From a virus: DNA of 64,000 nt. The notes beneath the pieces were generated by a model that made no database searches, had not been told where the DNA came from, and saw only the letters and a program-made list of their open reading frames with translations. The DNA is taken from positions 96,001 through 160,000 of IMG/VR virus record IMGVR_UViG_3300045988_180880. The stretch is one strand, 5' to 3'. Below are positions 20,878 through 50,512 of this stretch, one piece after another. A program made the translations under genes and the position numbers. Each line of letters starts with the position of its first letter. Positions within the stretch are counted from its first letter, which is position 1.

Positions 20878-21160
20878 GGACTAAGGAACCCTTTATCATA
20901 CCTTCCGTTCACCACTAAAGGGTTCACTCCAGGGCCCTACGGGCTCTAGATTGAATAAACTATATAGGGAATAAATAGATTATAAGAATTCGATCTCCTC
21001 CCAAAGGGAGATCGAATATATTAAGTGGAACTTTTTTAATCGAAAATAGATTTACTTTATATATGGTCAAATATGTCCTATTTAAATGACAATTTTGCGC
21101 TTCTACTAACTTTAAATCCTTACAATTGAATGAAGATTATAAAGGGTATCCCTAGTCTTC
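20878..21160 (+). other. non-coding, hairpin-rich element bounded by inverted repeats (copy L), upstream of the helicase-like gene
   Basis: 5' ggactaaggaaccc (20878..20891) against 3' gggtatccctagtc (21144..21157). Internal hairpins lie at 20887..20924, 20931..20947 and 20989..21016. Homologous to 50034..50512 on the opposite strand. Confidence 0.6.
21093..21132 (+). promoter_or_regulatory. promoter (TTTTGCG ... TTACAATTGAATG) of helicase-like gene L
   Basis: ttttgcgcttctactaactttaaatccttacaattgaatg aligns with the R-copy sequence ttttgctcttctattaacctcaaattctaattaatg and with the TTTTTGCG promoter class. Confidence 0.45.
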
Positions 21161-21232
21161 GATTTTATGTAACTGGATTCTGTATTAAAAAGAATCTATA
21201 AATAATAAATTAATTAAAAACTTTATAAAATT

Positions 21233-23260
21233 ATGACTAAAGATAAAATTATTGTACCTAGAGGAATTAGGTATATAGGAGAGTGGAAAGATTTCTGCTT
21301 TTCTAATTTTCTAAGTAAATGTATTATTAATAAACAATTACCTGGATGTGGTTTTACTGAATACTGTATTAATGGTCCTGAGAATGTAATACTTTGTTCT
21401 CCTAGAAAAATGCTTTTAAAGAATAAATATGATCAACATAAAAATGATATTTATTTAGTAATTAATGAGATGGATAAAGATCCAGATGTGGATAAGGATA
21501 TTAGTAAGGATATTAAAAATCCTAATTTAGATGAAGATTATCAAGAAAAGAAAGATAATTCTGAGATCTATGAAAGATTATATAGAGAAATTGATACTTA
21601 TACCTATCAAAGATATCTAAATAATCAACCAGCTAAGATTCTAGTAACATATGATTCATATAGAATCGTTAAAGATATTCTTGAAAAAATTAGAATATTT
21701 GATAGGTTTATGACTATAGTAGATGAGTTTCAGAGTATTTTACACGATTCTAGATTTAAAAGCAATACTGAAATGGGATTTTTGGAATATCTTAAACAAT
21801 CCCCAACAGCATACTTTGTATCAGCTACTCCTATGATGGATGAATATCTAGAAATGTTAGATGAATTTAAGGATCTCCCATATTATGAATTAGATTGGTA
21901 TAGTTCAGATTCTAGTAGAGTAATCAAACCTTCATTAAAAGTACTTACAATGAAATCAGTAGGTACAAAAGCAGAAGAAGTAATTCAATCCTATCTATCA
22001 GGAGATTTTGAAGAAGTTGTTGTTCTTAGAGATAGTGTACCTACTAGAGTAATATCAGACGAAGCAGTATTTTATGTAAACAGTGTTAATCATATTATAT
22101 CTATCATCAAGAAAAATGAATTAACTCCAGAACAATGTAATATATTATGTAGCAATACTCCAGAAAATCTAAAGAGAATACAAAAGAAATTAGGAAAAGG
22201 TTTTACTATAGGAGAAGTACCTCTTAAAGGAGTTAAACCTAGGATGTTTACCTTTTGTACTAGAACGGTTTACTTAGGAGCAGATTTTTATAGTTTATGT
22301 GCACGTAGTTTTATATTCTCAGATTCTAATTCAGACTGTTTAGCAGTTGATATTGCAGAAGATCTTCCACAGATACTAGGTAGACAAAGGTTGTTTAGTA
22401 ATCCTTGGAACAATTCAGCAACTTTTTATTATCGTACTACAGCAGATTATAGAGAAATGAAAGAGTCTGATTTTCAGAAAATTTTAAATAAGAAAACAGA
22501 AACTACAGAAAACTTATTATCAGTATATAATAAAGGAACTGATGAAGAAAGATATGATTTAGCGAAAAATTATTTATATGTAGCTAAGTCAGCAAGTTAT
22601 AAAGATAATTATGTAGCAGTAAATAAAATAATTACCAGTACAGGTAATATTATTTTAAAACCTGTTATTAATCAGCTTGTAAAAGTTAATGAGATTCGAG
22701 CATTTAAAATTCAGCAAATTGATTATAAAGATAGATTTAGTGTATTTAGTAGTGTACACTCTAAACTTACTCCTGATGATATAGTAAATAGGGATGTAAC
22801 TAGATTTTTCTGTATTTATGATACTTATACTACAATTCATGATAAACTTAAAATGTTATGTGAATATCCTGTTTCTAGAGAAGTGATAGATATAGTTCTT
22901 GGACAAATAGCAGATTCTGATGAAGTTAAGTCTTATTATCTGTCATTAGGTCCTACTAAACTTAAAGCGTTATCATACAATTCTCATAAAATAAAGAAAG
23001 AGCTTGGAATAGTAACATTTAGTCCAGAATTACTTAATAATACAATTCATCAAAACTTTAATCCAGGAGAGAAATATACACTATCTAATCTTAAAGCAAA
23101 ACTAGGAGATTTATATTCTAGTATTTCTTATACTGCAGTGCCAAAAGCTAATGATATTTTAAATTACTTTGAGGTAAAAGAATATAAATCTACTGAGGTT
23201 GTAGATGGGGAAAAGAAAAGAGTAAGAGGATATGAACTATTAAAAAGAAAGGATAATTAA
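21233..23260 (+). CDS. SF2 helicase-like protein with atypical motif I and a C-terminal domain shared with the next gene (paralog L)
   Basis: Motifs: QLPGCGFTEY (motif I position, no Lys), IVDEFQS (II), VSATPM (III), FCTRTVYLGADF (V), QILGRQRL (VI). About 70% aa identity by eye to 47922..49964. Confidence 0.7.
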   Translation: MTKDKIIVPRGIRYIGEWKDFCFSNFLSKCIINKQLPGCGFTEYCINGPENVILCSPRKMLLKNKYDQHKNDIYLVINEMDKDPDVDKDISKDIKNPNLDEDYQEKKDNSEIYERLYREIDTYTYQRYLNNQPAKILVTYDSYRIVKDILEKIRIFDRFMTIVDEFQSILHDSRFKSNTEMGFLEYLKQSPTAYFVSATPMMDEYLEMLDEFKDLPYYELDWYSSDSSRVIKPSLKVLTMKSVGTKAEEVIQSYLSGDFEEVVVLRDSVPTRVISDEAVFYVNSVNHIISIIKKNELTPEQCNILCSNTPENLKRIQKKLGKGFTIGEVPLKGVKPRMFTFCTRTVYLGADFYSLCARSFIFSDSNSDCLAVDIAEDLPQILGRQRLFSNPWNNSATFYYRTTADYREMKESDFQKILNKKTETTENLLSVYNKGTDEERYDLAKNYLYVAKSASYKDNYVAVNKIITSTGNIILKPVINQLVKVNEIRAFKIQQIDYKDRFSVFSSVHSKLTPDDIVNRDVTRFFCIYDTYTTIHDKLKMLCEYPVSREVIDIVLGQIADSDEVKSYYLSLGPTKLKALSYNSHKIKKELGIVTFSPELLNNTIHQNFNPGEKYTLSNLKAKLGDLYSSISYTAVPKANDILNYFEVKEYKSTEVVDGEKKRVRGYELLKRKDN

Positions 23261-23262
23261 TT

Positions 23263-24294
23263 ATGATATATTTGATTAAGAGTGCAGGTTATGATGAGAA
23301 TGAAAATTTAATTCATCTTCTCAAAATAGGTTATACAGAGGATAATAATAGAGATAGAAGATTTATGTCTTACAAACTTCATAATCCTACTTGTAAAATT
23401 TTATATGAAATTCCCAGTCTTTCAGAAGATATAGAAAAGAGAATTCAATATAAGTTTAGAGATTATAAGTATAAAGAATATGGAAATGAGTGGTTTTATT
23501 ATAATGATGATGTAATAAATTTCTTTAGGGATATAGATAAAGTAGATTTGGAATCTCTTCCAAAGTCTCCTATGAGTGAAAAGAGGGATTATAAGAGATT
23601 TAGAAAAATGGTTAAAGAATTTGTTCCTTGGATTATTGCTGATATAAAGGATAGAAATGAATATGTAAAGAAGATAATAGATGAATTAGGTAGTAATTTA
23701 AATTCTATTCAGGATATATTAGATTATGTGATAAAGGATTACGGAGAGGATTCTATCTCTAAGTATCTTGAAGTTACTAAGAAAAAAGAGATGAAAGTGT
23801 ATAGTGAAGATTCAAAGATTAATAGTGAAATAATAAAGTTTATTAATACTTATGAAACTCTTACTACTATCTATGATAAACTTAAAATGTTATGTGAATA
23901 TCCAGTCTCTAAGGAAGTTATTCAGATAGTATTAGATCAAATAGCAGATAGTGATGAGATTAAGTCTTATTATTTGCTTTTAGGTCCTGATAGGTTGAAA
24001 AAATTACATTATAATATTACAAATATTAGAAGAGAATTAGGTATTGTAACCTTTAGTCCTGAATTATTAAATAATACTATTCATCAAAATTTTAATCCAG
24101 GTGAGAAGTATACATTAGCTAATTTAAAGGCTAAACTTGGAGATCTATACTCTTCTATTTCTTATACTGCAGTTCCTAAGGCCAATGATATTTTAGAGTA
24201 TTTCGAAGTAAAAGAGGTTCAAAATACTATGTTAGTAGATGGAGTAAAGAAGCGAATTCGTAGTTATGAATTATTAAAAAGAAAGGATAATTAA
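23263..24294 (+). CDS. T5orf172 (GIY-YIG-related) domain protein carrying the same C-terminal domain as the helicase-like protein
   Basis: N-terminus IYLIKSAG...LLKIGYTEDNNRDRRF...NEWFYYN matches the T5orf172 pattern. The last roughly 150 aa (TTIYDKLKMLCEYPVSKEVIQIVLDQIADSDE...YELLKRKDN) nearly repeat the C-terminus of 21233..23260. Confidence 0.7.
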   Translation: MIYLIKSAGYDENENLIHLLKIGYTEDNNRDRRFMSYKLHNPTCKILYEIPSLSEDIEKRIQYKFRDYKYKEYGNEWFYYNDDVINFFRDIDKVDLESLPKSPMSEKRDYKRFRKMVKEFVPWIIADIKDRNEYVKKIIDELGSNLNSIQDILDYVIKDYGEDSISKYLEVTKKKEMKVYSEDSKINSEIIKFINTYETLTTIYDKLKMLCEYPVSKEVIQIVLDQIADSDEIKSYYLLLGPDRLKKLHYNITNIRRELGIVTFSPELLNNTIHQNFNPGEKYTLANLKAKLGDLYSSISYTAVPKANDILEYFEVKEVQNTMLVDGVKKRIRSYELLKRKDN

Positions 24295-24296
24295 TT

Positions 24297-24767
24297 ATGA
24301 AGTTAGGTAAATTAATTTCTAAAGCAATATCTTGTATAGATTCTTATATTAATCCACCAACAGAAAAAGAATTAAAAGATAAGCATAAGACTGAGTTTTA
24401 TGTCTATATATCCCAATTTCCTGGATTTATGGCAATGAATATATTAGATGAAATTGAGGAACTCGAAATGGATATTTTATCAGAGGATTATTATAATATA
24501 AGAGCTGGAAAAACGTGGAAGGTTCTTATATTATATCAAGGAACTTCAGATTGTTTGGGAAATATAAATAAAGTTCTAAAAGAAGATTTGGAATATTTTA
24601 GGAAACGAGTGATAAAATTAAATGAAACGTACTTAAATGGGGAAGTTTCAAGTATGGAAAATTATGATAGAAAAATACTTAGATGGTGTTTTCAATCAGA
24701 AGATCCAGAATTTAGTAGTAAATTTTTTAAATATTTAAATAAGTTGTTAAATGGTAATAAAACGTAA
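24297..24767 (+). CDS. hypothetical protein
   Basis: 156-aa ORF. A truncated, stop-containing homolog lies at 47722..47919 (-). Confidence 0.55.
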   Translation: MKLGKLISKAISCIDSYINPPTEKELKDKHKTEFYVYISQFPGFMAMNILDEIEELEMDILSEDYYNIRAGKTWKVLILYQGTSDCLGNINKVLKEDLEYFRKRVIKLNETYLNGEVSSMENYDRKILRWCFQSEDPEFSSKFFKYLNKLLNGNKT

Positions 24768-25254
24768 ATTATTCTCTAAAGAAGTAGAGAGAAAGAAATC
24801 TGATAAAGGATGGGATGCTGCTTTAGGAGCTGGTATTGGTGCTACAGCTGGAGTTGCTGGTAAAATGAAGCTTGAGAAGATTAATTCAATTAAGAAATTA
24901 AAAAATGCTACTAATGCTAGAATAAATAAAGTTCATGACTATCGAACTGAGAAAGTAGAAACAGAGATGCAAAGGAGAATTAATGCTTCTGTTGATCCTT
25001 TTGAAAAATCTGTAATAGATGAGGTTAGAAGAGGTAAACATGATATAATTAATAATAGCCGTAAAAATATGATAGAAACAGTTGGAAAGAAGAAACGAAA
25101 GCTAAAAATTGCGACAGCTGCTATCCCAATTGCTGGAGCTATTATTGGTGCAGTTTATGGTCGTGATAATAATCTCAAGAAACAAAGAGATAAAATAGAA
25201 GATGCTGCAGGAGATAGAGTTGCAGATATTGTTAGAGGAAAGAAAGAAAAATAA
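24751..25254 (+). CDS. glycine-zipper membrane protein
   Basis: AALGAGIGATAGVAG and IATAAIPIAGAIIGAVYG segments. The C-terminal 50 aa are homologous to 46747..47013 (-). Confidence 0.55.
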   Translation: MVIKRKLFSKEVERKKSDKGWDAALGAGIGATAGVAGKMKLEKINSIKKLKNATNARINKVHDYRTEKVETEMQRRINASVDPFEKSVIDEVRRGKHDIINNSRKNMIETVGKKKRKLKIATAAIPIAGAIIGAVYGRDNNLKKQRDKIEDAAGDRVADIVRGKKEK

Positions 25255-25273
25255 ATATAAAAATTAAATTATT

Positions 25274-25831
25274 ATGTCAACAAGAAGTACTATTTCAGTT
25301 AAGATACCTACTGAAATGATTGGAAAGGTATACGAGAACATTCATGGACATCAAGTTTATCTAGGAGGAGAGTATATGGTTATTTACTGTCACTTTGACG
25401 GTTATTTAGATGGTGTTGGAGAGATTTTGCAGTGTTATTATGATTCATTTGAGAAAGCTTTTGAGTTAATTCTAGGTGGTGATATCAGTTCCATCGCAGA
25501 GTCTCTTGAGGGTTGTGACTATTATGTTCGAAGAGGTGAGAGTTGGGAGAATAGCAAACCAGCTTTTTCAGATAAACCACCTAAGAGAGTTGAAGAGTAT
25601 TTATATATCTTCGAATCAGGAAAGTGGTATGTTTATAATGGGTATAATTGTAATGGACCGCTGGAGGATTATCTCAGCCCGGAAATCTCTTCAAAAGATG
25701 ACATGATTTCGTTACCTAAGAATTTTTGTTATTATTTACATGGTTATTTATCTGGGCTGTCATCTACCCAGCGAGAAGATAAAGGACTTGATTCTATAAT
25801 TAAAACATTGGAGGGTTATTTAGATGTTTAG
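25274..25831 (+). CDS. hypothetical protein
   Basis: 185-aa ORF with no motif recognised. Confidence 0.5.
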   Translation: MSTRSTISVKIPTEMIGKVYENIHGHQVYLGGEYMVIYCHFDGYLDGVGEILQCYYDSFEKAFELILGGDISSIAESLEGCDYYVRRGESWENSKPAFSDKPPKRVEEYLYIFESGKWYVYNGYNCNGPLEDYLSPEISSKDDMISLPKNFCYYLHGYLSGLSSTQREDKGLDSIIKTLEGYLDV

Positions 25832-26201
25832 AGTAATTATTTGTGGTTCTAGAGAATTTGATGATTACGATCTTCTTAAGGAGAAGTGTGATCTTATTTT
25901 ATCAAGAAAAGCAGCAGACCCAACGGAAAAGATTGTGATTGTTAGTGGATGTGCTAGAGGTGCTGATAGACTTGGAGAAAAATATGCTGAAGAAAAAGGT
26001 TATGAAGTTTTGCGTTATCCAGCTGATTGGGATAGATATGGAAAAAGTGCTGGGTATAGGAGAAATAAACAAATGGCAGAAGTGGCTAATGCATGTATAG
26101 CTTTCTTTAGTTCGGTTGCAGAGAATAAAGGAACTAAGAATATGGTATCTCTTGCAAGGAATATGAATCTTCTTGTAAGGGAGGTAAAAGAAGAGGATTA
26201 A
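25824..26201 (+). CDS. YspA/DUF2493-type SLOG (Rossmannoid) protein
   Basis: VIICGSREFDDY...IVSGCARGADRLGEKYAEEKG...ADWDRYGKSAGYRRNKQM matches the DUF2493 pattern common in phages. Confidence 0.65.
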   Translation: MFRVIICGSREFDDYDLLKEKCDLILSRKAADPTEKIVIVSGCARGADRLGEKYAEEKGYEVLRYPADWDRYGKSAGYRRNKQMAEVANACIAFFSSVAENKGTKNMVSLARNMNLLVREVKEED

Positions 26202-26241
26202 AAGCCTTATATATGTAATAAAAATAAATGTGAGAAATAAT

Positions 26242-26478
26242 ATGAAAACAGTAAAAGTAATTGTAGGTACCTCTGTAATTATTGGAGGTATATATTTAAT
26301 ATATAAAGCAGTTAAGAAGACGAATAGTGTAATAGATGGTGTTTCAGAAGTAAAAAATAAGATGAACACTTTTATACAAGATCAAGCAATTAACTGGATG
26401 AAAGATATTAATAAGAACTTAGAAACAAAAATAAAGGAAAAAGAAGACAAGTTACTAAACGATAAAGAAAAGAATTAA
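26242..26478 (+). CDS. small membrane protein
   Basis: N-terminal TM segment (VKVIVGTSVIIGGIYLIYKAV). The first ATG is at 26242; the track start is a GTG. Confidence 0.5.
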   Translation: MKTVKVIVGTSVIIGGIYLIYKAVKKTNSVIDGVSEVKNKMNTFIQDQAINWMKDINKNLETKIKEKEDKLLNDKEKN

Positions 26479-26574
26479 CGGGTTCTTTTAAGTTTGTAAT
26501 ATTGTTGTACCCTATTTAGTCCATCGGTCTGTGAAGATAGATGGATTTTATTTTTCTTCCTTTTTGAGTCCTTT

Positions 26575-26589
26575 AAAGCCTTATTAATG
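26575..26589 (+). promoter_or_regulatory. promoter-like motif AAAGCCTTATTAATG
   Basis: An exact copy of the 15-mer at 38219..38233. It is followed by a leader hairpin, ctccttaagcta...tagcttagggag, plus a T-run. Confidence 0.45.
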
Positions 26590-26667
26590 TAGAGAAAGAA
26601 ACTCCTTAAGCTAACAATGAAATAGCTTAGGGAGATTTTTTATTAATAAACTTAAAAGAGAATAAAA

Positions 26668-27080
26668 ATGGAAACAGGAGAAATTACAAGACAAGCAAAA
26701 CAAAGCTTAACTATCTTTAAAAAAAACAACTTCATGAATGTCAGTGTAGAGAGAATCGATTAAAAGAATATTATGAAAAGAAGTGGCTGACAAAGAAAGA
26801 GTTTTTAAAGAAAATAAGAAAGCAGAGAAAGAAAAGAGCAGAATTTGCAGAAAAGTATCTCACTAAATATAATGAATTTAAGAATCTTGGAGAAAAGATG
26901 TCACTAGAGCAAGAAAATTATGCTAGGGATGCAGATATAATAGTAAGTAGTTGGTTTATAATAACTCACCAATCATTACCTAAATTATTTATCTTAGCTG
27001 GAATGGTATCTGTTATAATGAAGAAAATAACTAAAGATTTTTGGTTATTGAGTGAGAAGAAAAAAGAGAGGGAAATTTAA
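26668..27080 (+). CDS. hypothetical membrane protein readable only with a -1 shift at an A8 run (26719..26726)
   Basis: The ATG at 26668 opens 31 codons in one frame. The -1 frame is open from 26721 to 27080 but has no ATG before 26898. The frames overlap on UUU AAA AAA AAC. Confidence 0.35.
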
Positions 27081-27088
27081 TCCCTCTC
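27066..27088. terminator. bidirectional terminator hairpin between convergent genes
   Basis: gagaggga-aatttaa-tccctctc, with an A-run upstream and a T-run downstream. Confidence 0.65.
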
Positions 27089-27099
27089 CATTTATTTTT

Positions 27100-30741: not shown

Positions 30742-30782
30742 AATTTATTCTTTCTTTTAATTAAACGTTTAATAAAATTTTC

Positions 30783-31076
30783 TTAATCATTTACAAGACC
30801 TAGGGTAGAATCTTTGTAAGTTACTGTTTCATCGTAGATCATCAATGTATCTGGGGATTTGAAACTTGCATGATAACTATTAGGAAGGTATAATACTCCA
30901 TTCTTGACATAAATTTTATTATTTTTGTCTTGAGTATCTGGATCTGTACCATTTACTTCCTGAATAGTTTTGCAATAGATTTCATAAATCAGCGGAAGAT
31001 TGTAACCTATATCCCCGAACGCATTGTAATCACTTCCAGGGTTGAATCCACAACCACAGTTGCAAAAATCATTCAT
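30783..31076 (-). CDS. hypothetical protein upstream of the tail fibre (possible fibre accessory protein)
   Basis: 97-aa ORF, co-oriented with and adjacent to the fibre gene. The role is inferred from position only. Confidence 0.45.
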   Translation of the reverse strand: MNDFCNCGCGFNPGSDYNAFGDIGYNLPLIYEIYCKTIQEVNGTDPDTQDKNNKIYVKNGVLYLPNSYHASFKSPDTLMIYDETVTYKDSTLGLVND

Positions 31077-31173: not shown

Positions 31174-31211
31174 CATGTATTAGGGTTTAGGTTTCCTAGG
31201 AGCGCAAAAAC
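31174..31211 (-). promoter_or_regulatory. promoter (TTTTTGCG ... CCCTAATACATG class) of the fibre operon
   Basis: The reverse complement reads gtttttgcgctcctaggaaacctaaaccctaatacatg. Confidence 0.5.
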
Positions 31212-31240: not shown

Positions 31241-32185
31241 TTAACCCTCCTTTATTTTTACATTTACGTTTCCAGTTAAAATGAAATAATCTATATCTAT
31301 ATTCCAACAAAGACCATAATGTTCTATTACATCACTTAATTCAATATAAGTATGATAACCAAGATTATATATAGACCTTATTTCTTTTACTGTACGAGTT
31401 GCAATATCACCTAATGTTTTCATATTCTTATGTTGAATATCATAATCTACTAAAGTATTAAGTGCTCTACGAGAAAGATTTAAGTCTCTTATACTAGTTT
31501 TTAATAATCTCATTCTCTTTTCTTGCTCTTCACTTAAAGTAACATCAATATTTTCTACATTTTTGATTCTCTTAAGTTCAGCTAATTCTATGTCTTTGGT
31601 CATGTTCTCTTTTGTTAACTTTTCAAGTTTTTCGAGAACTAGTTTATTGTTATCATATAAAAATTTTATATTATCATTAATATATTTAGTAAAATCACTT
31701 TTTGTCAAACCATAAGAATCTGCTAATTTCTTAATTTCATCAACATTCTTTTCTCCTTTTCCTTTATTAATAGAGTTAAGAAAAGTTAAGTATTTCCATA
31801 AAATTTCATTGATGCGGTGAAAATCTGAGTTATCATTATAGTAATGAATATTGTCTATTAAAGATGCAATAATTAATTCTTTGCAGTGTGAGTATCTTCT
31901 ATATCCAATTCTTATAATTCTTGTAACATCTTCTACTTCTTTGATCTCTTTTTTCATTTTTTCGATCTTTTCATCTAGCTGGCGTTCTAATTCTCCTAAA
32001 TCAGTTGTCTTTTTAGATAAACTGCTTTCCAATAAATCAATCAGAGTTTTCTTATCTACATATGTCATATTTTTAATAACTCTGATAGTAATTAAACCAG
32101 ATTTACCCCAGTTTGTAATAGTTTGTGTACTTACTTTTGCTAACTTTGCAGCATCAGTTCTTGTAATCCATTTTTCTTTTTTCAT
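31241..32185 (-). CDS. putative transcription regulator: N-terminal HTH + coiled coil + C-terminal RNA polymerase alpha-CTD-like (HhH) domain
   Basis: N-terminus WITRTDAAKLAKVSTQTITNWGKSGLI is an HTH. The C-terminus, IRDLNLSRRALNTLVDYDIQHKNMKTLGDIATRTVKEIRSIYNLGYHTYIELSDVIEHYGL, aligns with E. coli alpha-CTD ([56 protein letters not shown]). Confidence 0.6.
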   Translation of the reverse strand: MKKEKWITRTDAAKLAKVSTQTITNWGKSGLITIRVIKNMTYVDKKTLIDLLESSLSKKTTDLGELERQLDEKIEKMKKEIKEVEDVTRIIRIGYRRYSHCKELIIASLIDNIHYYNDNSDFHRINEILWKYLTFLNSINKGKGEKNVDEIKKLADSYGLTKSDFTKYINDNIKFLYDNNKLVLEKLEKLTKENMTKDIELAELKRIKNVENIDVTLSEEQEKRMRLLKTSIRDLNLSRRALNTLVDYDIQHKNMKTLGDIATRTVKEIRSIYNLGYHTYIELSDVIEHYGLCWNIDIDYFILTGNVNVKIKEG

Positions 32186-38258: not shown

Positions 38259-38693
38259 ATGAAAAAATTAACAAAAGAAGAAGCAGCAGAATTAAATGAA
38301 TTATTCGAAACTAGTAATTTTAAACCAGAAATGAGTGGTCTTAGTTTATATACAACACTAACTCAGATAAATTCAAAGACAATTAAACCAGGAGAAAATA
38401 ACCTTAGATTAATATCTATTCAAGGAACTGAGAAAATTTCGAAAATGATTGGTAGATTTATTACGAAGAAAAATAAAAAGCTAATTAAGATTACAGCTTA
38501 TTCAAAAAGTGGAAAAGTTCTTAAGGAGTTTGATTTTAATTGTTCTACCTTATATATAGAGAAAGGAAGACAGTCAAAAGATATAGATGAAATTACTGGA
38601 GAGATTGGATTTATACCTTTAGTAGGAGATGTATTTGTTCCAAGGTCTCATTATATTGGATTTAAAGTACTATATGATAAAGAGGGGATTTAA
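38259..38693 (+). CDS. hypothetical protein
   Basis: 144-aa ORF bracketed by a promoter motif and a terminator. Confidence 0.55.
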   Translation: MKKLTKEEAAELNELFETSNFKPEMSGLSLYTTLTQINSKTIKPGENNLRLISIQGTEKISKMIGRFITKKNKKLIKITAYSKSGKVLKEFDFNCSTLYIEKGRQSKDIDEITGEIGFIPLVGDVFVPRSHYIGFKVLYDKEGI

Positions 38694-38703
38694 TTTCCCT
38701 CTC
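38681..38703 (+). terminator. intrinsic terminator hairpin
   Basis: agagggga-tttaatt-tccctct followed by cttttttc. Confidence 0.65.
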
Positions 38704-38716
38704 TTTTTTCTTTCTC

Positions 38717-39205: not shown

Positions 39206-39217
39206 ATTTATTATATT

Positions 39218-41436: not shown

Positions 41437-41532
41437 AATTTTTAAGTAAAAGGGAATAAATTTTCCCTTTTATTTTTCTCCTTAAGATAACCGACAAATC
41501 CTTATTAATGTAACAATAAAACATTGATAATT

Positions 41533-43743: not shown

Positions 43744-43760
43744 AGGAAGAATAAAAAAAA

Positions 43761-43800
43761 GATAGGTCTTGACCAATTAAAAGTCAAGTTAAATCCTATC
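43761..43800. terminator. long bidirectional terminator hairpin (paralog at 50540..50580)
   Basis: gataggtcttgac-caattaaaa-gtcaagttaaatcctatc, flanked by A8 upstream and a T-run downstream. Confidence 0.65.
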
Positions 43801-43813
43801 TTTTTATTTTTTT

Positions 43814-45976
43814 TTATTCGCCGATAATATCAAGTATTTTCACATAATTCTTTGATATATCTTCAAATAATATTTTTTCTTTTACTTCTATATCTGGATC
43901 ATCCGGTAATATTTCTACAACTTCAGCACCTCTAGATTCATAATGTTGCTTAATGATATCATAAGATGAGTATTTTTCTTGTTTAGAGAAAAAGTTAACT
44001 ATTGCTTTCTGTAAGGAATAATTATCTTTATTATTAACTGGAAGTCCGGAAGTCTCACAATCTAAGAGAATCATTTCTCTATTTTCGATATCAATCATCA
44101 TTGCTGCTATCGAATCAGTCTTAGATGTAACGGGAACTGTTAATTCAACCTTTTGCGGATGCCAAGTTTTATCACCTTCCTGTAATTTTTCTCTAGTACA
44201 ATACCCCAACCATACAGGAAGAGTATCCATTCCTCGACCTTTATAATTGCAAACATCCATCACCACATATTTATATCCATTCTTTTTGCACTTATCTAGA
44301 TCAACGTCTACATACTCTGCACAATCTCCTGGACGGTTTAATACATCACCAGAATGAACAGCAACATTAGAATTAAGTGAAGTATTCCATCCTATATTGC
44401 TAATATCATCATTAGACTTATATAAGAATGCATGAAGATCTAAGTCTTCATCTCTATCTTTCTGAATCCAATGAACAAAAAACCTAACAATATTTCCAGA
44501 GATTTTATATCTTGTTCCTTTGGGGATAGATACATTTTGATTTCTCATACCCTTCGGAATAGGTATTCTCTTAATTTCTGGATCGATATATACAATCTCG
44601 TTTACTAAATCTTTCTCAGTAATTCTAGAATCTATGTTGAGAAATATTTTTCGAATTATATTATCTTTTATAGTTTCTAAGAATCCAGGGTTAATTGGTT
44701 TTAATCCATCTAGTATATATAAACCTTTTCCAGGAATATTTACCACTCTAGGAGTACTTTCTGATTGATCTCTTATATCGTAGTAGCTAAGAATTTCTAA
44801 GAGTGTTTTATTTTTCATCCCTGAAGTATTTATAAAGATATCCATTATATCAGATTCTTTACCTTCTTCAAGAGCTCTTCTTAAGAGAGAATCAAATTTT
44901 CTAATAAATTCCCCTGGATGAGTAGAAATAAATTTAGCTATTTCTAGAATATCTTTACCAGTATCATACATATTCTGTACTTGAGAATTAAATGTACGAT
45001 ATTCTTTTGATAAACCCTTACTCTTAAGTTTTACAAAGAAATCAGCACACTCAGGATAATTTACTACATATTCCTTCGGATGTACACGTTCTGATAGTAA
45101 TATCCAATGTCCATAGAAAAGTTTTGCATCTCGTATACAGTTTTCTACTCCTTTAGCCTCAATTATTTTTTCTATTCTTCCACAAATTTCTCTACGTTTT
45201 GATCTAGGAAGAGTATCTAATTTTCTCCATTCAGAATTATCAGTTTTTTTATTAGACCAAGAGCTAACTTGTATTTTCTTTGGAACATGTGGAAGACTTG
45301 GATCAGCTCCCATTAAGTACAAACTATATCTCAGAACATCATTAATCTCGGCAATTTTATATTCCGGCCGATGTTTAGCTACTATACACATTGTTTCTTT
45401 AAATGGTATACGTTCTGGGATGCTAAGTTCTGGATAATTCTCTAAGAACCATGCCAACTCTTCCCTAGTTTCTCCTGTTAGTGAATTTCCGGCCGACATC
45501 ATTTGCCGAGGAATATCCATAAATTCAGAAGGAGTCATAATCTTAAGCTGTCGATCTGGCTCTTCATCAATTATTTCCTTCTCTTCTTTAGTTGTCCAAG
45601 GATTATCTCTTAGAAATCCTTCAAGATCACCAGAATAAACTCTTTTTTGATCTAACCACAATTCCGATTTATCCTTAGAAATTACTTGTTCTGGAAATCC
45701 TGGATACAAAGGTTTAAACTTTTCCCCAGAATGATACAATTCGTGGATGTATGGAAGTAGATTTGTATGGAGATTTTCCATATCACTAATCGTCATCCTA
45801 CATATTACTTCGGGAGAAAGAAAATATCTATATCTCTTTAATTCTTGAAGAAGTGAGATTAATACTCTCTTACTCTTTTCCTCCATGTTTCTAGGATCTA
45901 CTAACTCCTTGCTCTCTACTAATACGCATCCTCTATGAAATGCAATAATTTCCTTGTTTAATTTCATTTCTGCCAT
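43814..45976 (-). CDS. large protein with C-terminal TerD-like beta-sandwich domain
   Basis: 720 aa. Residues around 490-600, VRFFVHWIQKDRDEDLDLHAFLY...VAVHSGDVLNRPGDCAEYVDVDLDKCKKNGYKYVVMDVCNY, fit the TerD pattern (DLDL...HSGD...E.i.vdL). The N-terminal 480 aa are unrecognised. Confidence 0.55.
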   Translation of the reverse strand: MAEMKLNKEIIAFHRGCVLVESKELVDPRNMEEKSKRVLISLLQELKRYRYFLSPEVICRMTISDMENLHTNLLPYIHELYHSGEKFKPLYPGFPEQVISKDKSELWLDQKRVYSGDLEGFLRDNPWTTKEEKEIIDEEPDRQLKIMTPSEFMDIPRQMMSAGNSLTGETREELAWFLENYPELSIPERIPFKETMCIVAKHRPEYKIAEINDVLRYSLYLMGADPSLPHVPKKIQVSSWSNKKTDNSEWRKLDTLPRSKRREICGRIEKIIEAKGVENCIRDAKLFYGHWILLSERVHPKEYVVNYPECADFFVKLKSKGLSKEYRTFNSQVQNMYDTGKDILEIAKFISTHPGEFIRKFDSLLRRALEEGKESDIMDIFINTSGMKNKTLLEILSYYDIRDQSESTPRVVNIPGKGLYILDGLKPINPGFLETIKDNIIRKIFLNIDSRITEKDLVNEIVYIDPEIKRIPIPKGMRNQNVSIPKGTRYKISGNIVRFFVHWIQKDRDEDLDLHAFLYKSNDDISNIGWNTSLNSNVAVHSGDVLNRPGDCAEYVDVDLDKCKKNGYKYVVMDVCNYKGRGMDTLPVWLGYCTREKLQEGDKTWHPQKVELTVPVTSKTDSIAAMMIDIENREMILLDCETSGLPVNNKDNYSLQKAIVNFFSKQEKYSSYDIIKQHYESRGAEVVEILPDDPDIEVKEKILFEDISKNYVKILDIIGE

Positions 45977-45995
45977 ATTTTTTTTGGTTTATAAA

Positions 45996-46307
45996 TTAAA
46001 TTTTCATCCACTTTTTTGCTCTCTCGAATTGTTTTATGAGATCATCTATCCAAGTACTAGCCGTACAATCTTTCTCAACTAATATCCATGAACTTGGAAT
46101 GTCTGCTGAGTGATTCATAATAATAGAAAAACTAGTATCTTTTCTATCTTTCCCATCACCATCTAAGAAAAGTATTACCCCAAAAACACTCCCAAAGAAA
46201 TATATCCTTGGAAGATGAGGTTGTTTTGATAGGTCCAGTTTATCATAATGATTTTTCCATGATCTATCTTTCAAATCATTTTTAATTAATTCATTTATTT
46301 CATCCAT
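45996..46307 (-). CDS. hypothetical protein
   Basis: 103-aa ORF. Confidence 0.5.
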   Translation of the reverse strand: MDEINELIKNDLKDRSWKNHYDKLDLSKQPHLPRIYFFGSVFGVILFLDGDGKDRKDTSFSIIMNHSADIPSSWILVEKDCTASTWIDDLIKQFERAKKWMKI

Positions 46308-46333
46308 TTTTCTATTTGTTTATTTTTCTACAC

Positions 46334-46738
46334 TTATAAGAGTTTCTCGCCTTCTACAGTTATGGTCCTATGTTTCTTTTGTAGTTCGTCAAGTAATTTT
46401 CTTTTTAGTGTTCCAGGGAGAGGAATTTGTGGAAACAGCAACGTCTCACTTCTATGTTTCCAAAGCCACTCATCTATCTCTTCGAAGGATTGCTCAAAGA
46501 CTTCAAAAACTGGTTGCTCATCATAAAACCATTCATCTAAGAATTCAACTTTAAAATCATATAGTCTAAGGTGAAGTCTAAGTTCGTCTAATTCTGAACC
46601 CTCTCGTGTAGATATTATTTCTCCAAGAGGATTATGAAGACGATATTGATTTTTTCGTTTTTCTAAGTCTCCGGTATATCCAATTTTTACAACCTTCCTT
46701 ATTCCTTTCCATGCGCCAGATCCAAATAAATATAACAT
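46334..46738 (-). CDS. T5orf172 (GIY-YIG-related) domain protein (module R)
   Basis: MLYLFGSGAW...VVKIGYTGDLEKRKNQY...LDEWFYDE matches the T5orf172 pattern. It lacks the long C-terminal domain of 23263..24294. Confidence 0.65.
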   Translation of the reverse strand: MLYLFGSGAWKGIRKVVKIGYTGDLEKRKNQYRLHNPLGEIISTREGSELDELRLHLRLYDFKVEFLDEWFYDEQPVFEVFEQSFEEIDEWLWKHRSETLLFPQIPLPGTLKRKLLDELQKKHRTITVEGEKLL

Positions 46739-46746
46739 TTTATAAT

Positions 46747-47013
46747 TTACTCCTTTTTCTTCTTACCTTTAATAATTCCAGCAACCCTATCTCCTGCCAC
46801 ATCCTCTATCTTATTCCGCTGCTTCTTAAGGTTATTTTGATATCCATAGGTTGCACCAAGAATAGCTCCTGCAATCGGAATGGCAGCTGCTGCAATTTCA
46901 TCATGGGATAAATATGTAAAATCATCAAGTGACCTATGTGTACCATAGGTAGTCAATGTTTCAGCACTTGCCATTCTTGCTTTCTTTGCAGCTTCTTCTA
47001 CTGTCTGTTTCAT
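46747..47013 (-). CDS. glycine-zipper membrane protein (paralog of the 24751..25254 C-terminus)
   Basis: IAAAAIPIAGAILGATYGYQNNLKKQRNKIEDVAGDRVAGIIKGKKKKE compares with IATAAIPIAGAIIGAVYGRDNNLKKQRDKIEDAAGDRVADIVRGKKEK. Confidence 0.6.
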   Translation of the reverse strand: MKQTVEEAAKKARMASAETLTTYGTHRSLDDFTYLSHDEIAAAAIPIAGAILGATYGYQNNLKKQRNKIEDVAGDRVAGIIKGKKKKE

Positions 47014-47348
47014 AACTTATTCGGATTTGTTTTACAATAATTTTCATTCTCTTTCAGTTTTAAAATATTATTCAAATGTTCGTCTGAAAGCAGATGCTTA
47101 TTACTAAAATTACCCAACATTATACGAGGTTCAATATTTTCATCTCTCATAAATTTCTGTAGTTCGTATATATGAAAAAGCAAACCTTCACAATCTACTG
47201 CGTAGTATTCAACGCCATCGTCATTGTTGGCAGATACTTCATAACCAATCCATCCACCGTTACCCATATAAGTATTTATCTCAATATTACGGCAAAAGCC
47301 ATAACTGATAAGTAATAGCCTTAGTACATCTTTCCCACTCATACACAT
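47010..47348 (-). CDS. hypothetical protein
   Basis: 112-aa ORF with overlapping start/stop codons on both neighbours. Confidence 0.5.
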   Translation of the reverse strand: MCMSGKDVLRLLLISYGFCRNIEINTYMGNGGWIGYEVSANNDDGVEYYAVDCEGLLFHIYELQKFMRDENIEPRIMLGNFSNKHLLSDEHLNNILKLKENENYCKTNPNKL

Positions 47349-47509
47349 TTCGATTTATCAATTTGTCCTATACGCTGTCTTTCAAATCCCTCTATCTGTG
47401 CGTCAGTAAGGTTGTTCAGCCATTCATCAGCATACTTTCTGTACTTGGCATGATTGCATTTATAAAACTCCAATCTAAGCCATTCAATAGTTATGTCCTT
47501 TTGTTCCAT
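47339..47509 (-). CDS. hypothetical small protein (56 aa; below the ORF-track cutoff)
   Basis: ATG at 47509: MEQKDITIEWLRLEFYKCNHAKYRKYADEWLNNLTDAQIEGFERQRIGQIDKSKCV. The start abuts the upstream stop (TGAttATG). The stop overlaps the next start (ATGTGTATGA). Confidence 0.5.
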   Translation of the reverse strand: MEQKDITIEWLRLEFYKCNHAKYRKYADEWLNNLTDAQIEGFERQRIGQIDKSKCV

Positions 47510-47511
47510 AA

Positions 47512-47703
47512 TCATCTGGTTATAGTAGTTCTTTTATTAAATAAAACCATAAGTATCAAGGCAAAGGCGACTTTCAATAATCGCTTTTTACCAACAATTA
47601 CAATGTTGTCTTTGGTTATTCCACTATCAGTTGTTATGCTGTACCATTTACTATATGGTGGTAAGCACCTATAAATATGAATTTTAGAAAATGTATATTT
47701 CAT
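47512..47703 (-). CDS. hypothetical small membrane protein
   Basis: 63 aa. Preceded by a canonical Shine-Dalgarno (ataggaggtaattATG). C-terminal hydrophobic segment LLKVAFALILMVLF. Confidence 0.5.
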   Translation of the reverse strand: MKYTFSKIHIYRCLPPYSKWYSITTDSGITKDNIVIVGKKRLLKVAFALILMVLFNKRTTITR

Positions 47704-47721
47704 AATTACCTCCTATGTGTT

Positions 47722-47919
47722 TTATGGTTCTTGTTCATTCAACATAATTTTATCTCCTTCTCTTTTAAGGCTTATATCAATTGCCATAAATTCAGGAAAT
47801 TGAGATATATAAACATAAAACTCAGTCTTACGTTTATCCTTTAATTGTTTTTCTGTTGGTGGATTCTTATATTAATCCACACAAGATATTGCTTTAGAAA
47901 TTAATTTACCTAATTCCAT
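47722..47919 (-). pseudogene. truncated, stop-interrupted homolog of 24297..24767
   Basis: MELGKLISKAISCVD-TAA-YKNPPTEKQLKDKRKTEFYVYISQFPEFMA... compares with MKLGKLISKAISCIDSYINPPTEKELKDKHKTEFYVYISQFPGFMA... There is an in-frame TAA at codon 16 and the sequence ends after 65 codons. It is preceded by aaggaggtg. Confidence 0.6.
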
Positions 47920-47921
47920 AA

Positions 47922-49964
47922 TTAACACACCTCCTTTCTACTTAATAGTTCATAACCCTTTGTTTGTTTCTTTTTTCCAGTAGTCTCATCTAAAATAGAT
48001 ATATAAATTAATTTAACCTCAAAATAACTTTCTAAATCTTTTGCTTTAGGGGTTTTATCATAATTAATACTAGAATACAAATATCCTAACTTATCTTTTA
48101 TTCCAGATAATATTAATTTATCCCCTACTTTAAATTCATTATAGATAGTAGCTTCTAATAATTCATCTGAAAAAGTAATTATTCCTAAAGCTTTTTTTAT
48201 TTTAGTAATATGATAACCCATACCCTTTAATCTTTGAGGACCCAATGTAATATAGTAAGATTTAACCTCATCTGAATCAGATATCTGCCCTAATACTATA
48301 TCAATAGCGTCTTCAGACAAACCATATTCACAAATAAGTTTTAATTTATCATACATAGTAGTTAAACTAGTATATACCTTTAAAAAATTTGATACCTCCT
48401 GATTCACTATATCATCTCTGGTTAACATATTATGTACCGTACTAAACACTGTAAATCTATCTTTATAGTCTATCTGTTGTATTTTAAAAGCTCTAATCTC
48501 ATTTACTAGTACTAGATTATTAGGAACTGGTTTAAGAATAATATTTCCTTCAGAAGTATGAATCTTATTTACTGCTACATAATCATCCTTATAATTAGAA
48601 GCTTTGGCATCTTTCTGATACTTCTTAGCTAATGCAAATTTATCTTTTATAGAAATAGCAATATTATAAGTTCTTAATAAACTTTCTGTCATTTCTTGTT
48701 TAGTTTTTATTATTTTCTGAAAATCTTCAGCCTTCATTTCTCTATAATTAGCAGTAGATCTATAATAAAAAGTGGCTGAATTTTTCCAAGGATTATCAAA
48801 TAATCTTTGCCTTCCTAATATCTGGGGCAAATCTTCTGATATATCTACAGCCAAGGAATCTATATTACTATCACTGAATATAAATGATCTAGCACATAAA
48901 CTATAAAAGTCAGCTCCAAGATATACAGTTCTTGTACAAAAAGTAAACATTTTAGGTTTTACTCCCTTTAACGGTACTTCACCTATCTTAAAAGACTTAC
49001 CTAACCTCCTTTGAATTTTCTTTAAATTATCTTCTGTGTATGAACATAAGATATTACATTGCTCTGAGGTAAGATTATTCTTTTTAATGATAGATGTAAT
49101 ATGATTAACACTATTAACATAGAATACAGCCTCATCTGATACTACTCTAGTAGGAATTCCATTTCTAAGAACTACTATACTTTCAAACTCTCCTGAAAGA
49201 TACTTTTGAATTACTTCAGAAGCTTTTTCACCAACAGATCTCATTACAAAGACATCTAAATCTGGTTGAATAACTCTACTAGGATCCGCAGATCCCCAAT
49301 CTAATTCATAATATGGGAGATCCTTAAATTCATCTAACATTTCTAAATATTCATCCATCATAGGAGTTGCACTAACAAAGTATGCTGTTGGAGATTGTTT
49401 AAGATATTCTAGAAATTTTAATTCAGTATCACTCTTAAATCTAGAATCATGAAGAATACTTTGAAATTCATCTACTATTGTATAAAATGTATAAAATCTA
49501 TCTAATTTCTCTAGGATATCTTTTACTATTCTATATGAATCATAAGTAACAAGGATTTTACAAGGTAATCCATTAATACTCCTAGATATACAGTATTCCT
49601 CTATTTCTCTATATAATCTTTTATAGATATCTGAATTATCTAATGATTCTGAATCAATTGATAAGTCTGCTAAAATATTTTTATCAATCTTAGATAAGTC
49701 TTTATCAATATTAGACTCCTTATCCATTTCATTTACGACCAGATAAACATCAAATTCATGTTGATCCTTTTTATTCTTAAGTAGCATCTTTCTGGGACTA
49801 CATAAAATAATATTTTCATTACTCCTAATACAATATTCAGTAAAACCACATCCAGGTAATTGTTTATTAATAATACATTTACTTGGAAATTTATTAAAAT
49901 TAAATTCATTCCATTCTGAAATAAATCTAATTCCAGATGGTACTATTATCTTCTCTCTAATCAT
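47922..49964 (-). CDS. SF2 helicase-like protein with atypical motif I (paralog R)
   Basis: Same motifs as 21233..23260 (QLPGCGFTEY, IVDEFQS, VSATPM, QILGRQRL). The C-terminal domain is more diverged. Confidence 0.7.
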   Translation of the reverse strand: MIREKIIVPSGIRFISEWNEFNFNKFPSKCIINKQLPGCGFTEYCIRSNENIILCSPRKMLLKNKKDQHEFDVYLVVNEMDKESNIDKDLSKIDKNILADLSIDSESLDNSDIYKRLYREIEEYCISRSINGLPCKILVTYDSYRIVKDILEKLDRFYTFYTIVDEFQSILHDSRFKSDTELKFLEYLKQSPTAYFVSATPMMDEYLEMLDEFKDLPYYELDWGSADPSRVIQPDLDVFVMRSVGEKASEVIQKYLSGEFESIVVLRNGIPTRVVSDEAVFYVNSVNHITSIIKKNNLTSEQCNILCSYTEDNLKKIQRRLGKSFKIGEVPLKGVKPKMFTFCTRTVYLGADFYSLCARSFIFSDSNIDSLAVDISEDLPQILGRQRLFDNPWKNSATFYYRSTANYREMKAEDFQKIIKTKQEMTESLLRTYNIAISIKDKFALAKKYQKDAKASNYKDDYVAVNKIHTSEGNIILKPVPNNLVLVNEIRAFKIQQIDYKDRFTVFSTVHNMLTRDDIVNQEVSNFLKVYTSLTTMYDKLKLICEYGLSEDAIDIVLGQISDSDEVKSYYITLGPQRLKGMGYHITKIKKALGIITFSDELLEATIYNEFKVGDKLILSGIKDKLGYLYSSINYDKTPKAKDLESYFEVKLIYISILDETTGKKKQTKGYELLSRKEVC

Positions 49965-50033
49965 ATTTAAATTATATTTTTATTGTTACAAAATAATATT
50001 TAAACTCAATACAGAGTTCAGTTAGTTAAAATT

Positions 50034-50512
50034 GAAGACTAAGGATACCCTTAACTTCATTAATTAGAATTTGAGGTTAATAGAAGAGCAAAATACAACT
50101 TTACTAATACATTTTCACCTACATGTAGTATATAAATTTAATTCGGATAGAAAAGTTGTAGTGGTTCTTCTATAAGAGCGAACATAGTGAGAGACTCACC
50201 TCCCGAAGGGAGGAGGTGATGTCGTCTCTTATAGGAGGTTCACGATAAATAGAAAATAATAGATTAATTATTATATATCTATTATATGGAAATGAACCTT
50301 AAAAGAGTACCGTCCACCCGCTCCCTGTAAGGGGAGCGAGGACTCTCACTAACGTTCGTACTTTTTAAGAACCATTAAATAATTATATTTTCTATTCAAT
50401 TCTAACTAATATTTATTTAATTCTTTTTTATTCTCTATATATCTTTTCAGTTTCTTGAAGGCCCGAATGAACATAGTGAATGAAGGATATAGATTCTGGT
50501 ATCCCTAGTCTT
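50034..50512 (-). other. non-coding, hairpin-rich element bounded by inverted repeats (copy R), upstream of the helicase-like gene
   Basis: gaagactaaggataccc (50034..50050) against ggtatccctagtctt (50498..50512). A long-range helix joins 50162..50193 with 50343..50374 and encloses hairpins at 50196..50219 and 50319..50338. Confidence 0.6.
50058..50095 (-). promoter_or_regulatory. promoter of helicase-like gene R
   Basis: The reverse complement reads attttgctcttctattaacctcaaattctaattaatg, homologous to 21093..21132. Confidence 0.45.

Follow-up and report, generated by a model that had tools for sequence, protein, structure and literature searches.

The analyses presented here show that multicopy helicase-like cassettes of large phage-like genomes have been colonised by a T5orf172 element that captures the C-terminal domain of the resident helicase-like protein. 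We examined a window of 64,000 nt (positions 96,001-160,000 of the IMG/VR record IMGVR_UViG_3300045988_180880; G+C ~29%; all coordinates are those of the window), which carries two such cassettes, L on the plus strand and R on the minus strand, each with a gene for a helicase-like protein of superfamily 2 (SF2; hel_L and hel_R, respectively). In cassette L, the helicase gene is followed by a gene that joins a T5orf172 nuclease domain to a copy (helC') of the helicase C-terminal domain (helC), hereafter the T5orf172-helC gene. An initial annotation of the window had read L and R as two arms, each a module of a helicase-like and a T5orf172 gene, that bracket a 21-kb accessory block. Its observations on the sequence were largely right; the pair-of-arms reading does not hold. 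We propose that the cassettes are dispersed, self-contained units and that the T5orf172-helC gene is their homing-endonuclease-like parasite, an explanation to which, taken as a whole, we assign a probability of about 0.5. A cassette would comprise a non-coding element (often bounded by inverted, type-specific motifs), a promoter with its leader and the gene of an SF2-fold ATPase, in some cases together with genes for a 156-aa protein (p156-like) and a Gly-zipper-like protein. The helicase-like protein would be a sequence-specific DNA-binding helicase of the replication-initiator type acting at its own cassette, with helC as the DNA-recognition domain and the motif of that cassette as its target.

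The T5orf172-helC gene and its junctions

The duplication of the hel_L C-terminus noticed in the initial annotation was confirmed. The last ~163 amino acids (aa) of hel_L are found again at the C-terminal end of the 343-aa T5orf172 protein, with 75% protein identity, and the identity of this fused domain to other helC alleles reaches 99%. Behind the duplication lies a nucleotide repeat (22787-23086 / 23821-24120, spacing 1034 nt). The T5orf172 domain was recognised by PF10544 both in this protein (27.7 bits) and in the 134-aa protein of cassette R (24.1 bits; curated cut-off 20), and these were the only matches of any module protein in Pfam, PHROGs, NCBIfam and PADLOC.

We then surveyed 157 helicase-like open reading frames (ORFs) and 49 fusions. 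The fusion lay directly 3′ of a helicase gene in 47 of the 49 cases and of another fusion in the other two, while about 70% of the cassettes lacked the nuclease. When the window locus (L001) was compared with locus L004, the flanks were ~100% identical and the two differed by a clean insertion/deletion of 1034 nt, beside which the last ~100 nt of the helicase gene also differed (filled ..KRKDN versus empty ..SRKEVC). Two units were stacked in L020 versus one in L021, and the helicase-then-fusion layout recurred in two diverged GTDB lineages. The fused helC' shared 47-82% identity with the helC next upstream, versus 90-99% with helicase alleles located elsewhere. Specifically, the helC' of the window matches the helC of a '79%' allele found at the same L locus, and that of L021 corresponds to the empty R-type allele at L044. 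Flanks of ~100% identity at the L locus enclosed helicase alleles of 100%, 79% and 64% identity, with breakpoints at ~20880 or ~21025 on the left and in the last 40-70 nt of the gene on the right. Within the nuclease domain, IYLI, KIGYTED, RF and EWF were invariant in 16 diverse fusions and may include the catalytic residues. The domain is under purifying selection, with ratios of non-synonymous to synonymous substitution rates (dN/dS) of 0.15-0.49, and so is helC'.

Altogether, the T5orf172-helC gene looks like a selfish, homing-endonuclease-like element that overwrites resident alleles, following the logic of the ICP1 nuclease Odn. The 'selfish homing-type cassette' put forward in the initial annotation is supported for this gene by its clean presence or absence, its tandem stacking and the junctions inside helC. 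The 343-aa protein would be a bipartite GIY-YIG-type endonuclease (nuclease domain, linker and helC) targeted through helC, and would travel with the upstream helicase allele by double-strand-break repair or recombination. On the simplest reading of the origin of helC', the incoming unit would consist of the leader, the helicase allele, the nuclease domain and the start of helC. The right-hand crossover would fall inside helC; recombination would thereby remove the helicase core of the resident cassette and keep its helC, now joined to the nuclease as the C-terminus. Allele replacement and gene conversion between paralogues would together give rise to the patchwork of identities between L and R. 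More speculatively, a nuclease carrying the helC of the displaced allele could cut cassettes of the displaced type and spare its own. When nuclease-domain identity was compared with that of the neighbouring segments, the competing models could not be separated, since all segments co-vary by shared ancestry.

These data also bear on the simplest alternative, a plain duplication of an ordinary or decaying helicase in which the T5orf172 fusion is an accidental by-product of tandem duplication and neither a selfish element nor a specific cis-element is involved. Families of paralogous genes are frequent in large viral genomes, the helicase-like family lacks the Walker-A lysine, and RNAalifold found no consensus structure in the leaders, all of which such a duplication would accommodate. 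It would not account for a clean insertion/deletion at a strictly defined position in three diverged lineages, for the purifying selection on both the nuclease domain and helC', for helicase motifs II, III and VI that stay invariant down to 20% identity, or for inverted motifs that co-vary with the cassette type. We regard it as highly unlikely.

Helicase-like cassettes dispersed along large genomes

The helicase-like family comprises 1773 clusters at 50% identity, and its relatives are encoded on 352 IMG/VR stretches. The exact hel_L protein was found on contigs of up to ~384 kb and proteins 99-100% identical to it on contigs of up to ~430 kb. One 368-kb IMG/VR contig holds at least six copies (near 78, 106, 154, 225, 268 and 362 kb), and in GTDB nine copies lie on one 376-kb contig and five on one 371-kb contig; the two GTDB counts include every match to these contigs, while the IMG/VR counts per contig are lower bounds. 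L and R are accordingly not an exclusive pair bracketing a block but members of a dispersed family with at least 6-9 cassettes per genome. Clustering by the upstream flank distinguished about 10 recurrent locus types. Clustering by the downstream flank was uninformative because different locus types merged through shared pieces.

Four related contigs presented the same order of L, block and R, in convergent orientation and ~23-26 kb apart, and neither an inverted nor an empty form was seen among them. This constancy indicates that the layout of the window is a conserved gene order and not a mobile unit; the inverted orientation of L and R would not be functional in itself. A composite mobile or invertible element, with L and R as arms that carry the 21-kb block, had been suggested by the convergent inverted copies, by their inverted-repeat-bounded ends and by the accessory genes between them. 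We rejected it, as the arms are only 70% identical in protein sequence and lack a transposase or recombinase domain, at least 6-9 copies occur per genome, and the order, orientation and spacing are kept in the four contigs.

The helicase and T5orf172 genes do not form the repeated module either. Genes resembling p156 and the Gly-zipper-like gene were found together at the R-type locus L035 (both 41-48% identity), and such genes also occur at L022, L024, L039 and L067. These paralogous loci indicate that the ancient duplicated unit consisted of the leader, the helicase-like gene, p156 and the Gly-zipper-like gene, and that the R copy in the window has since been eroded. As annotated, the 156-aa gene is degenerate in R. 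The Gly-zipper-like proteins do share their C-terminal ~50 aa, but their Pfam Gly-zipper matches stayed below threshold. The two T5orf172 genes, taken in the initial annotation as counterparts, are only 34% identical over 88 aa, and the R gene lacks helC and sits after the Gly-zipper-like gene. Its 95-100% conservation across R-type loci suggests that it is a fixed gene of that locus.

Direct comparison of the cassettes upheld the estimate of about 70% identity between the helicase-like proteins, which was 70% end to end. At the nucleotide level, homology runs from 21092 to 23253 in L and from 50094 to 47932 in R and includes the leader, ~140 nt before each ATG, in agreement with the upstream parts that the initial annotation gave to both modules. 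The p156 remnant of R is 89% identical to L in nucleotide sequence versus 72% for the helicase genes. This remnant and the last residues of hel_R (..LLSRKEVC) reproduce the 'empty' junction of an L-type locus, which shows that loci have exchanged sequence. The remnant is absent from the R-type loci L036, L037, L044 and L045.

On two contigs the cassettes are spaced far more evenly than expected by chance. On the nine-copy contig JAGAYY010000025.1 (L242-L252, L258) the gaps measure 27-60 kb, with a coefficient of variation of 0.20 (P ~2e-5), and on the five-copy contig CASEGV010000001.1 (L237-L239, L244, L251) they measure 55-87 kb, with a coefficient of variation of 0.15 (P ~1e-3). The result concerns two contigs and assumes that each is complete and that every copy was found. 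It suggests a genome-scale role, such as that of origins or of domain organisation. If so, evenly spaced multicopy cassettes would offer a testable handle on the replication or chromosome structure of ~370-kb phage genomes. GTDB places these ~370-kb contigs (L237-L252, L258) in genome bins of Mycoplasmatota or Bacilli, and IMG/VR lists close relatives as viral. The 64-kb window contains neither a capsid nor a terminase gene. Megablast queries with the module and with the window's first 20 kb found next to nothing among GenBank phages, indicating that this genome is absent from that collection.

At L052/L179 and L201, in comparison with L054/L180, the same helicase allele and L-type downstream genes are preceded by another flank, in which the DHH-family gene is missing; the left edge of the cassette is therefore a breakpoint in gene order. 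Allele replacement and gene-order breaks have their hot spots in the cassettes, which is relevant to strain-level analysis of abundant gut viruses.

Helicase fold, leader motifs and the candidate specificity domain

The helicase-like identity proposed for hel_L was borne out by structure prediction. An AlphaFold2 model built on 53 diverse relatives reached a predicted local distance difference test score (pLDDT) of 85.9 and contained two RecA-like domains followed by helC; an earlier model from six close sequences was unusable (pLDDT 43). The model further shows a domain of helices and a beta-hairpin (~405-500), a low-confidence linker (503-514) and helC (517-675), which ends in a strand-helix-helix-long-beta-hairpin arrangement of possibly winged-helix-like topology. 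Foldseek against the PDB returned Brr2, RecQ/BLM/WRN and DEAD-box helicases (1e-9 to 1e-7). Against a viral library, the best match was a 606-aa protein (1e-35), probably the 606-aa homologue in Edwardsiella phage ET-ABTNL-9, and the next were proteins of giant viruses and herpesviruses that carry the annotation of origin-binding protein or SF2 helicase (1e-14 to 1e-8). Sequence and profile searches of the PDB with the helicase-like protein gave keratin noise only, and Pfam, PF02399 included, matched none of the 53 relatives. The protein was not placed in any well-characterised family by Pfam, PHROG, NCBIfam, PADLOC or PDB sequence matches.

The motifs reported in the initial annotation were all present. 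Motif I reads QLPGCGFTEY in both copies, without its lysine, and DEFQ, SATP and QILGRQR are kept; the motifs are invariant across the 53 relatives. D164/E165, S197/A198/T199/P200 and Q380/G383/R384/R386 are invariant or nearly so, and DE, SAT and Q..GR.R are retained in homologues of as little as 20% identity. In motif I the pattern K-x3-G-[CV]-G-[FYAG]-T holds throughout, distant homologues included, and never the canonical G-K-[ST]. Position 41 is F, Y or A in 53/53 aligned members and A or G in the homologues of cultured phages, never K, while K34, four residues before G38, is invariant. Because the other catalytic motifs are so strongly conserved, the protein is probably an active enzyme with an unusual P-loop. 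This defines a large family, outside Pfam, PHROG and NCBIfam, in which the P-loop lysine is relocated or missing and the other catalytic motifs are intact.

Homologues beyond the multicopy genomes occur as single copies. In cultured phages, these were found in Psychrobacter phage D'Alembert and Edwardsiella phage ET-ABTNL-9 (20-23% identity); tblastn against the phage collection matched six records only, with no T4-like phage and no SPbeta among them. The D'Alembert homologue (L235) adjoins a 5.7-kb terminal repeat, and next after the homologue come an HNH endonuclease and an RNA ligase. Bacteroidales homologues are likewise single-copy (26-34% identity), and in roughly three-quarters of ~33 loci the helicase homologue adjoins a homologue of the PF08800 (BT4734-like AEP primase) protein. 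The BT4734-like proteins are a family of archaeo-eukaryotic primases (AEPs), whose genes in mobile elements typically cluster with helicase genes or are fused to them, the two proteins working together (PMC5862659, PMC11724360). The adjacency seen in Bacteroidales is the best functional clue that we obtained and points to replication. A D12 methyltransferase and a DUF5131 protein are often present at the Bacteroidales loci too (L262-L294, e.g. L292:2996-6896), and the same 6.9-kb stretch occurs in Phocaeicola massiliensis and Bacteroides fluxus, with unchanged ORF boundaries and 100% identity in every protein tested. With the primase adjacency, the inverted motif pairs and a fold resembling that of origin-binding proteins, the 'replication or recombination initiator' of the initial annotation is plausible for the helicase-like protein.

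The leader upstream of every paralogue contains, in this order, a promoter-class motif, a variable segment of 10-12 nt, GTCTTC and TAACTGRAYTCTGTATT; in cassette L the variable motif is likewise followed by GTCTTC and TAACTGGATTCTGTATT. The TTTTGC promoter class proposed earlier held for the longer motif TTTTGCKYTYYTA, which is enriched in the window (4 sites versus 0.14 expected) and stands once upstream of each helicase-like gene, but not for TTTTGC alone (24 sites versus 21 expected). The two further TTTTGCKYTYYTA sites (14646-14658 and 31197-31209, both on the minus strand) precede unrelated small genes (14136-14597 and 30783-31076), suggesting a phage-specific promoter class. The variable segments fall into classes A (GGTATCCYTA, in both L and R), B (GARACTCCTRT) and C (ATCCTCCTRT).

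The bounding of the non-coding element by inverted repeats, as annotated, is clear in R and degenerate in L. Among 74 distinct cassettes, 22 carry their own 16-mer in inverted form 290-520 nt upstream with at most three mismatches, and 0 of 50 shuffled motifs did as well. Class consensus motifs pair only A with A and B/C with B/C. The inverted-repeat boundary is thus real and recurrent, yet optional. Within the window, the cassette motif is confined to the two cassettes. The helC domain diverges faster than the helicase core, and within the B/C subfamily helC identity predicted the motif class better (area under the curve (AUC) 0.89) than core identity did (0.77), although the core lies physically closer to the motif. 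The AUC result agrees with helC being the specificity domain, and the strand-helix-helix-hairpin ending together with the co-variation of the leader motif would be consistent with DNA binding by helC.

RNAalifold on 41 leaders gave no consensus structure, a test that is limited by the insertions and deletions of the alignment. In the conserved leader hairpin (21166-21200 / 49995-50030; columns 98-125 of alignment A4) the arms seem to compensate each other (GGATTC-TGTATT..GAATC in L versus GAACTC-TGTATT-GAGTT in R), and a GAAGA..TCTTC stem of the leader becomes GAGGA..TCCTC in L020. A GC-rich hairpin, TTCGATCTCCTCCCAAAGGGAGATCGAA, located ~230 nt upstream of the helicase ATG (20988-21017 in the window), is present as the exact reverse complement in L007 versus L009, that is, the hairpin loop is flipped. 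A 24-nt likeness of the leader to the 3′ end of the helicase gene looks like chance and is missing from R. A count of the leader 16-mer in IMG/VR was dropped, as chance matches were probably mixed in.

The position of the variable motif just downstream of a shared promoter-class motif, the inverted motif pairs that flank the promoter and the regular spacing in two genomes could also suit factors of transcription or chromosome organisation. These would be sequence-specific SF2 ATPases, like the small subunit of the poxvirus early transcription factor, each paralogue autoregulating through its own leader operator and controlling a different part of the genome. Foldseek did match an 'early transcription factor 70 kDa subunit' (1e-7), but no better than generic SF2 helicases. 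The confinement of the cassette motif to the two cassettes of the window leaves no regulon visible, and the primase pairing in Bacteroidales points to replication instead. We therefore judge such a role decidedly unlikely.

Several observations weigh against the proposal of initiator-type cassettes with a homing parasite. A recognisable distal inverted motif exists in only about 30-40% of the cassettes, at this distal copy classes B and C are not cleanly separated, and the correlations between segments, including that of helC with motif class, are confounded by shared ancestry. Neither the PDB profile search nor Pfam gave a link between the family and UL9 or another initiator, all members lack the canonical Walker-A lysine, so that ATPase activity is putative, and helC could equally be a protein-protein interaction domain. 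The history of L was not one clean event, as both helC copies end in ..KRKDN and empty alleles in ..SRKEVC. Finally, the window already holds conventional primase and helicase fragments, so that an extra initiator is not obviously needed, and cassettes L and R lie inside co-directional gene runs and not at strand-switch points.

A more far-reaching version of the proposal combines private modules of an origin and its initiator, spaced near-regularly, with T5orf172-helC nucleases that home to origins, and would amount to a gene drive among replication origins. Replication of the ~370-kb phage genome would start at many origins, and every origin would have a private initiator; the nuclease would inherit the DNA-binding domain of the displaced initiator and cut rivals, to which its own new cassette would be immune. 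We consider this combination improbable.

Known systems, window layout and neighbouring genes

The components are related to known kinds, namely homing endonucleases, Odn-like chimeras and primase-associated UL9-like helicases, and several of their features are new. Odn (Gp88) of vibriophage ICP1 joins a T5orf172 nuclease to a copied DNA-binding domain from the initiator of a satellite, and it cuts the origin of that satellite (PMC8263062). Both proteins combine a T5orf172 nuclease of the GIY-YIG superfamily with a domain borrowed from another protein, a replication initiator in the case of Odn and presumably a protein of that type here, and each nuclease domain has relatives among the putative homing endonucleases encoded in the same genome. 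They differ in that the borrowed domain of Odn is N-terminal and comes from the satellite RepA, whereas here it is C-terminal, comes from the phage's own helicase-like paralogues and has been swapped repeatedly by recombination with the displaced allele. DNA binding and cleavage have been shown for Odn and are predictions for T5orf172-helC. If our proposal is right, the Odn principle of a T5orf172 nuclease that borrows its targeting domain would no longer be a one-off weapon of a phage against its satellite, and a homing element would be re-armed recurrently, through recombination, with the domain of the allele that it displaces.

Since Odn is itself an anti-parasite weapon (PMC8263062), the helicase-like protein and the T5orf172-helC nuclease might instead form a conflict system, acting jointly as a helicase-nuclease weapon or as a counter-defence against rival phages or the immunity of the host, in which helC serves as dimerisation or recruitment domain and the allelic diversity stems from an arms race. 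The range of helicase identity within one locus between identical flanks (62-100%), the presence or absence of the nuclease between genomes and a domain common to both proteins, which could mediate heteromers, would all agree with this. However, no PADLOC model matched, the ~70% of cassettes without the nuclease imply that the helicase works alone, the fused helC' is the domain of the displaced allele and not matched to its neighbour, and the Bacteroidales homologues pair with a primase and not with defence genes. On balance, a conflict system seems unlikely.

The free-standing GIY-YIG homing endonucleases of T4-like phages (Seg; with I-TevI as structural model) resemble T5orf172-helC in being bipartite, with a nuclease, a linker and a presumed DNA-binding domain, and in their genetics, as the gene lies beside its target gene, is present or absent in close relatives, and the flank next to the insert is altered. 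In contrast to them, T5orf172-helC has a presumed targeting domain homologous to the protein that its target gene encodes, the T5orf172-helC gene appears to travel with and overwrite the gene upstream and stacks in tandem, and its targets are a paralogue family within one genome.

Dispersed modules of an initiator gene and its site within one replicon are also known from the multi-origin chromosomes of Sulfolobus, where each origin lies beside its own initiator gene (Orc1/Cdc6 or WhiP AAA+ initiators) and origin function has been demonstrated. Such modules were probably acquired as selfish replicon modules. The initiator proteins are different here, and an origin function of the cassettes is purely hypothetical. 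The helicase-like protein shares with herpesvirus UL9 an SF2 core followed by a C-terminal domain, and, of the named proteins in the viral library, those closest to it in structure carry the annotation of origin-binding proteins. In cassette R, inverted motif copies flank an AT-rich stretch, a sequence layout resembling that of UL9 origins. UL9-like helicases have been predicted in phages and plasmids beside AEP primases (pVOG1685/9714; PMC5862659), and the Bacteroidales homologues pair with a BT4734-like AEP primase in the same manner. Unlike UL9, the helicase-like family has no PF02399 sequence match and no Walker-A lysine, and many paralogues are present per genome, each with its own motif, instead of one initiator that serves several origins.

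The features of both cassettes are listed in Table 1.

Table 1. Features of cassettes L and R in window coordinates.
Feature	Coordinates	Strand	Remarks
DHH-family gene upstream of cassette L	19890-20816		DHH match
Terminator-like hairpin (intrinsic type)	20826-20852	+	10-pair stem then T-run; ends the DHH-family gene; left edge of cassette L
Non-coding element, cassette L	20879-21157	+	Left ends of allele replacement at ~20880 and ~21025
Degenerate distal inverted motif, cassette L	20879-20892		12/14 bases matching
GC-rich hairpins, cassette L	20886-20925 and 20988-21017
Promoter-class motif TTTTGCGCTTCTA and conserved leader, cassette L	21093-21232	+
Proximal motif GGGTATCCCTAGTC, cassette L	21144-21157
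hel_L	21233-23260	+	SF2-fold helicase-like protein, 675 aa; Lys-less motif I
helC of hel_L (aa 517-675)	22781-23257	+	Fast-evolving C-terminal domain; from structure model and divergence
T5orf172-helC' fusion gene	23263-24294	+	343 aa; start 2 bases past the hel_L stop codon
GIY-YIG-type nuclease domain of the fusion	23266-23514	+
helC' of the fusion	23803-24291	+	Near-identical to helC of the '79%' helicase allele of the same locus
p156	24297-24767	+	Small protein of the ancestral repeated module; p156-like genes 3′ of the helicase gene at several loci
Gly-zipper-like protein	24751-25254	+	167 aa; ancestral repeated module; Pfam matches sub-threshold
Stand-alone T5orf172 protein, cassette R	46334-46738	-	134 aa; without helC; 95-100% conserved across R-type loci
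Short Gly-zipper-like protein, cassette R	46747-47013	-	88 aa; C-terminal ~50 aa common with the L protein
Two small R-specific ORFs			Between the p156 remnant and the short Gly-zipper-like gene
p156 remnant	47773-47919	-	Codons 1-49; 89% nucleotide identity to L; stop codons after
hel_R	47922-49964	-	Paralogue of hel_L, 680 aa
Promoter-class motif (50081-50093) and conserved leader, cassette R	49965-50093	-
Non-coding element, cassette R	50035-50512	-	~480-bp imperfect palindrome, centre near 50270
Outer inverted repeat, cassette R	50035-50049 / 50498-50512		15 nt, 93% complementary
Inner concentric inverted repeat, cassette R	50185-50204 / 50332-50351		Around the AT-rich centre

Besides the cassettes, the window codes for GroEL, IF-1, NAD synthase, RNA ligase-like proteins, primase and helicase fragments and an HNH homing endonuclease. 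The inward-facing arrangement and the block genes named in the initial annotation stood in part: the cassettes are convergent and IF-1 and NAD synthase were found, but TerD was not detected, and the radical-SAM and tail-fibre assignments were weak. The 720-aa protein that had been called TerD (43814-45976, minus strand) matched nothing in Pfam at E <= 0.001. Among the genes at 2903-4384, 6414-7514 and 8949-9875 (all on the minus strand), the HNH homing endonuclease has as neighbours ORFs that cover the PHROG DNA-helicase and DNA-primase profiles only in part, and the replication genes of the window may be split or fragmented. Scans of the entire window with Rfam (gathering thresholds) and for tRNAs were negative.

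Just upstream of cassette R, a 282-aa protein (50595-51443, minus strand) weakly matches the N-terminal domain of PvuRts1I-like nucleases, and its paralogues (31% identity) are located 5-6 kb upstream of other cassettes. A 28-nt pair that is 96% complementary (27057-27084 and 38685-38712) resembles a shared terminator in opposite orientations, and a 314-aa protein (31241-32185) carries an RNA polymerase alpha C-terminal domain.

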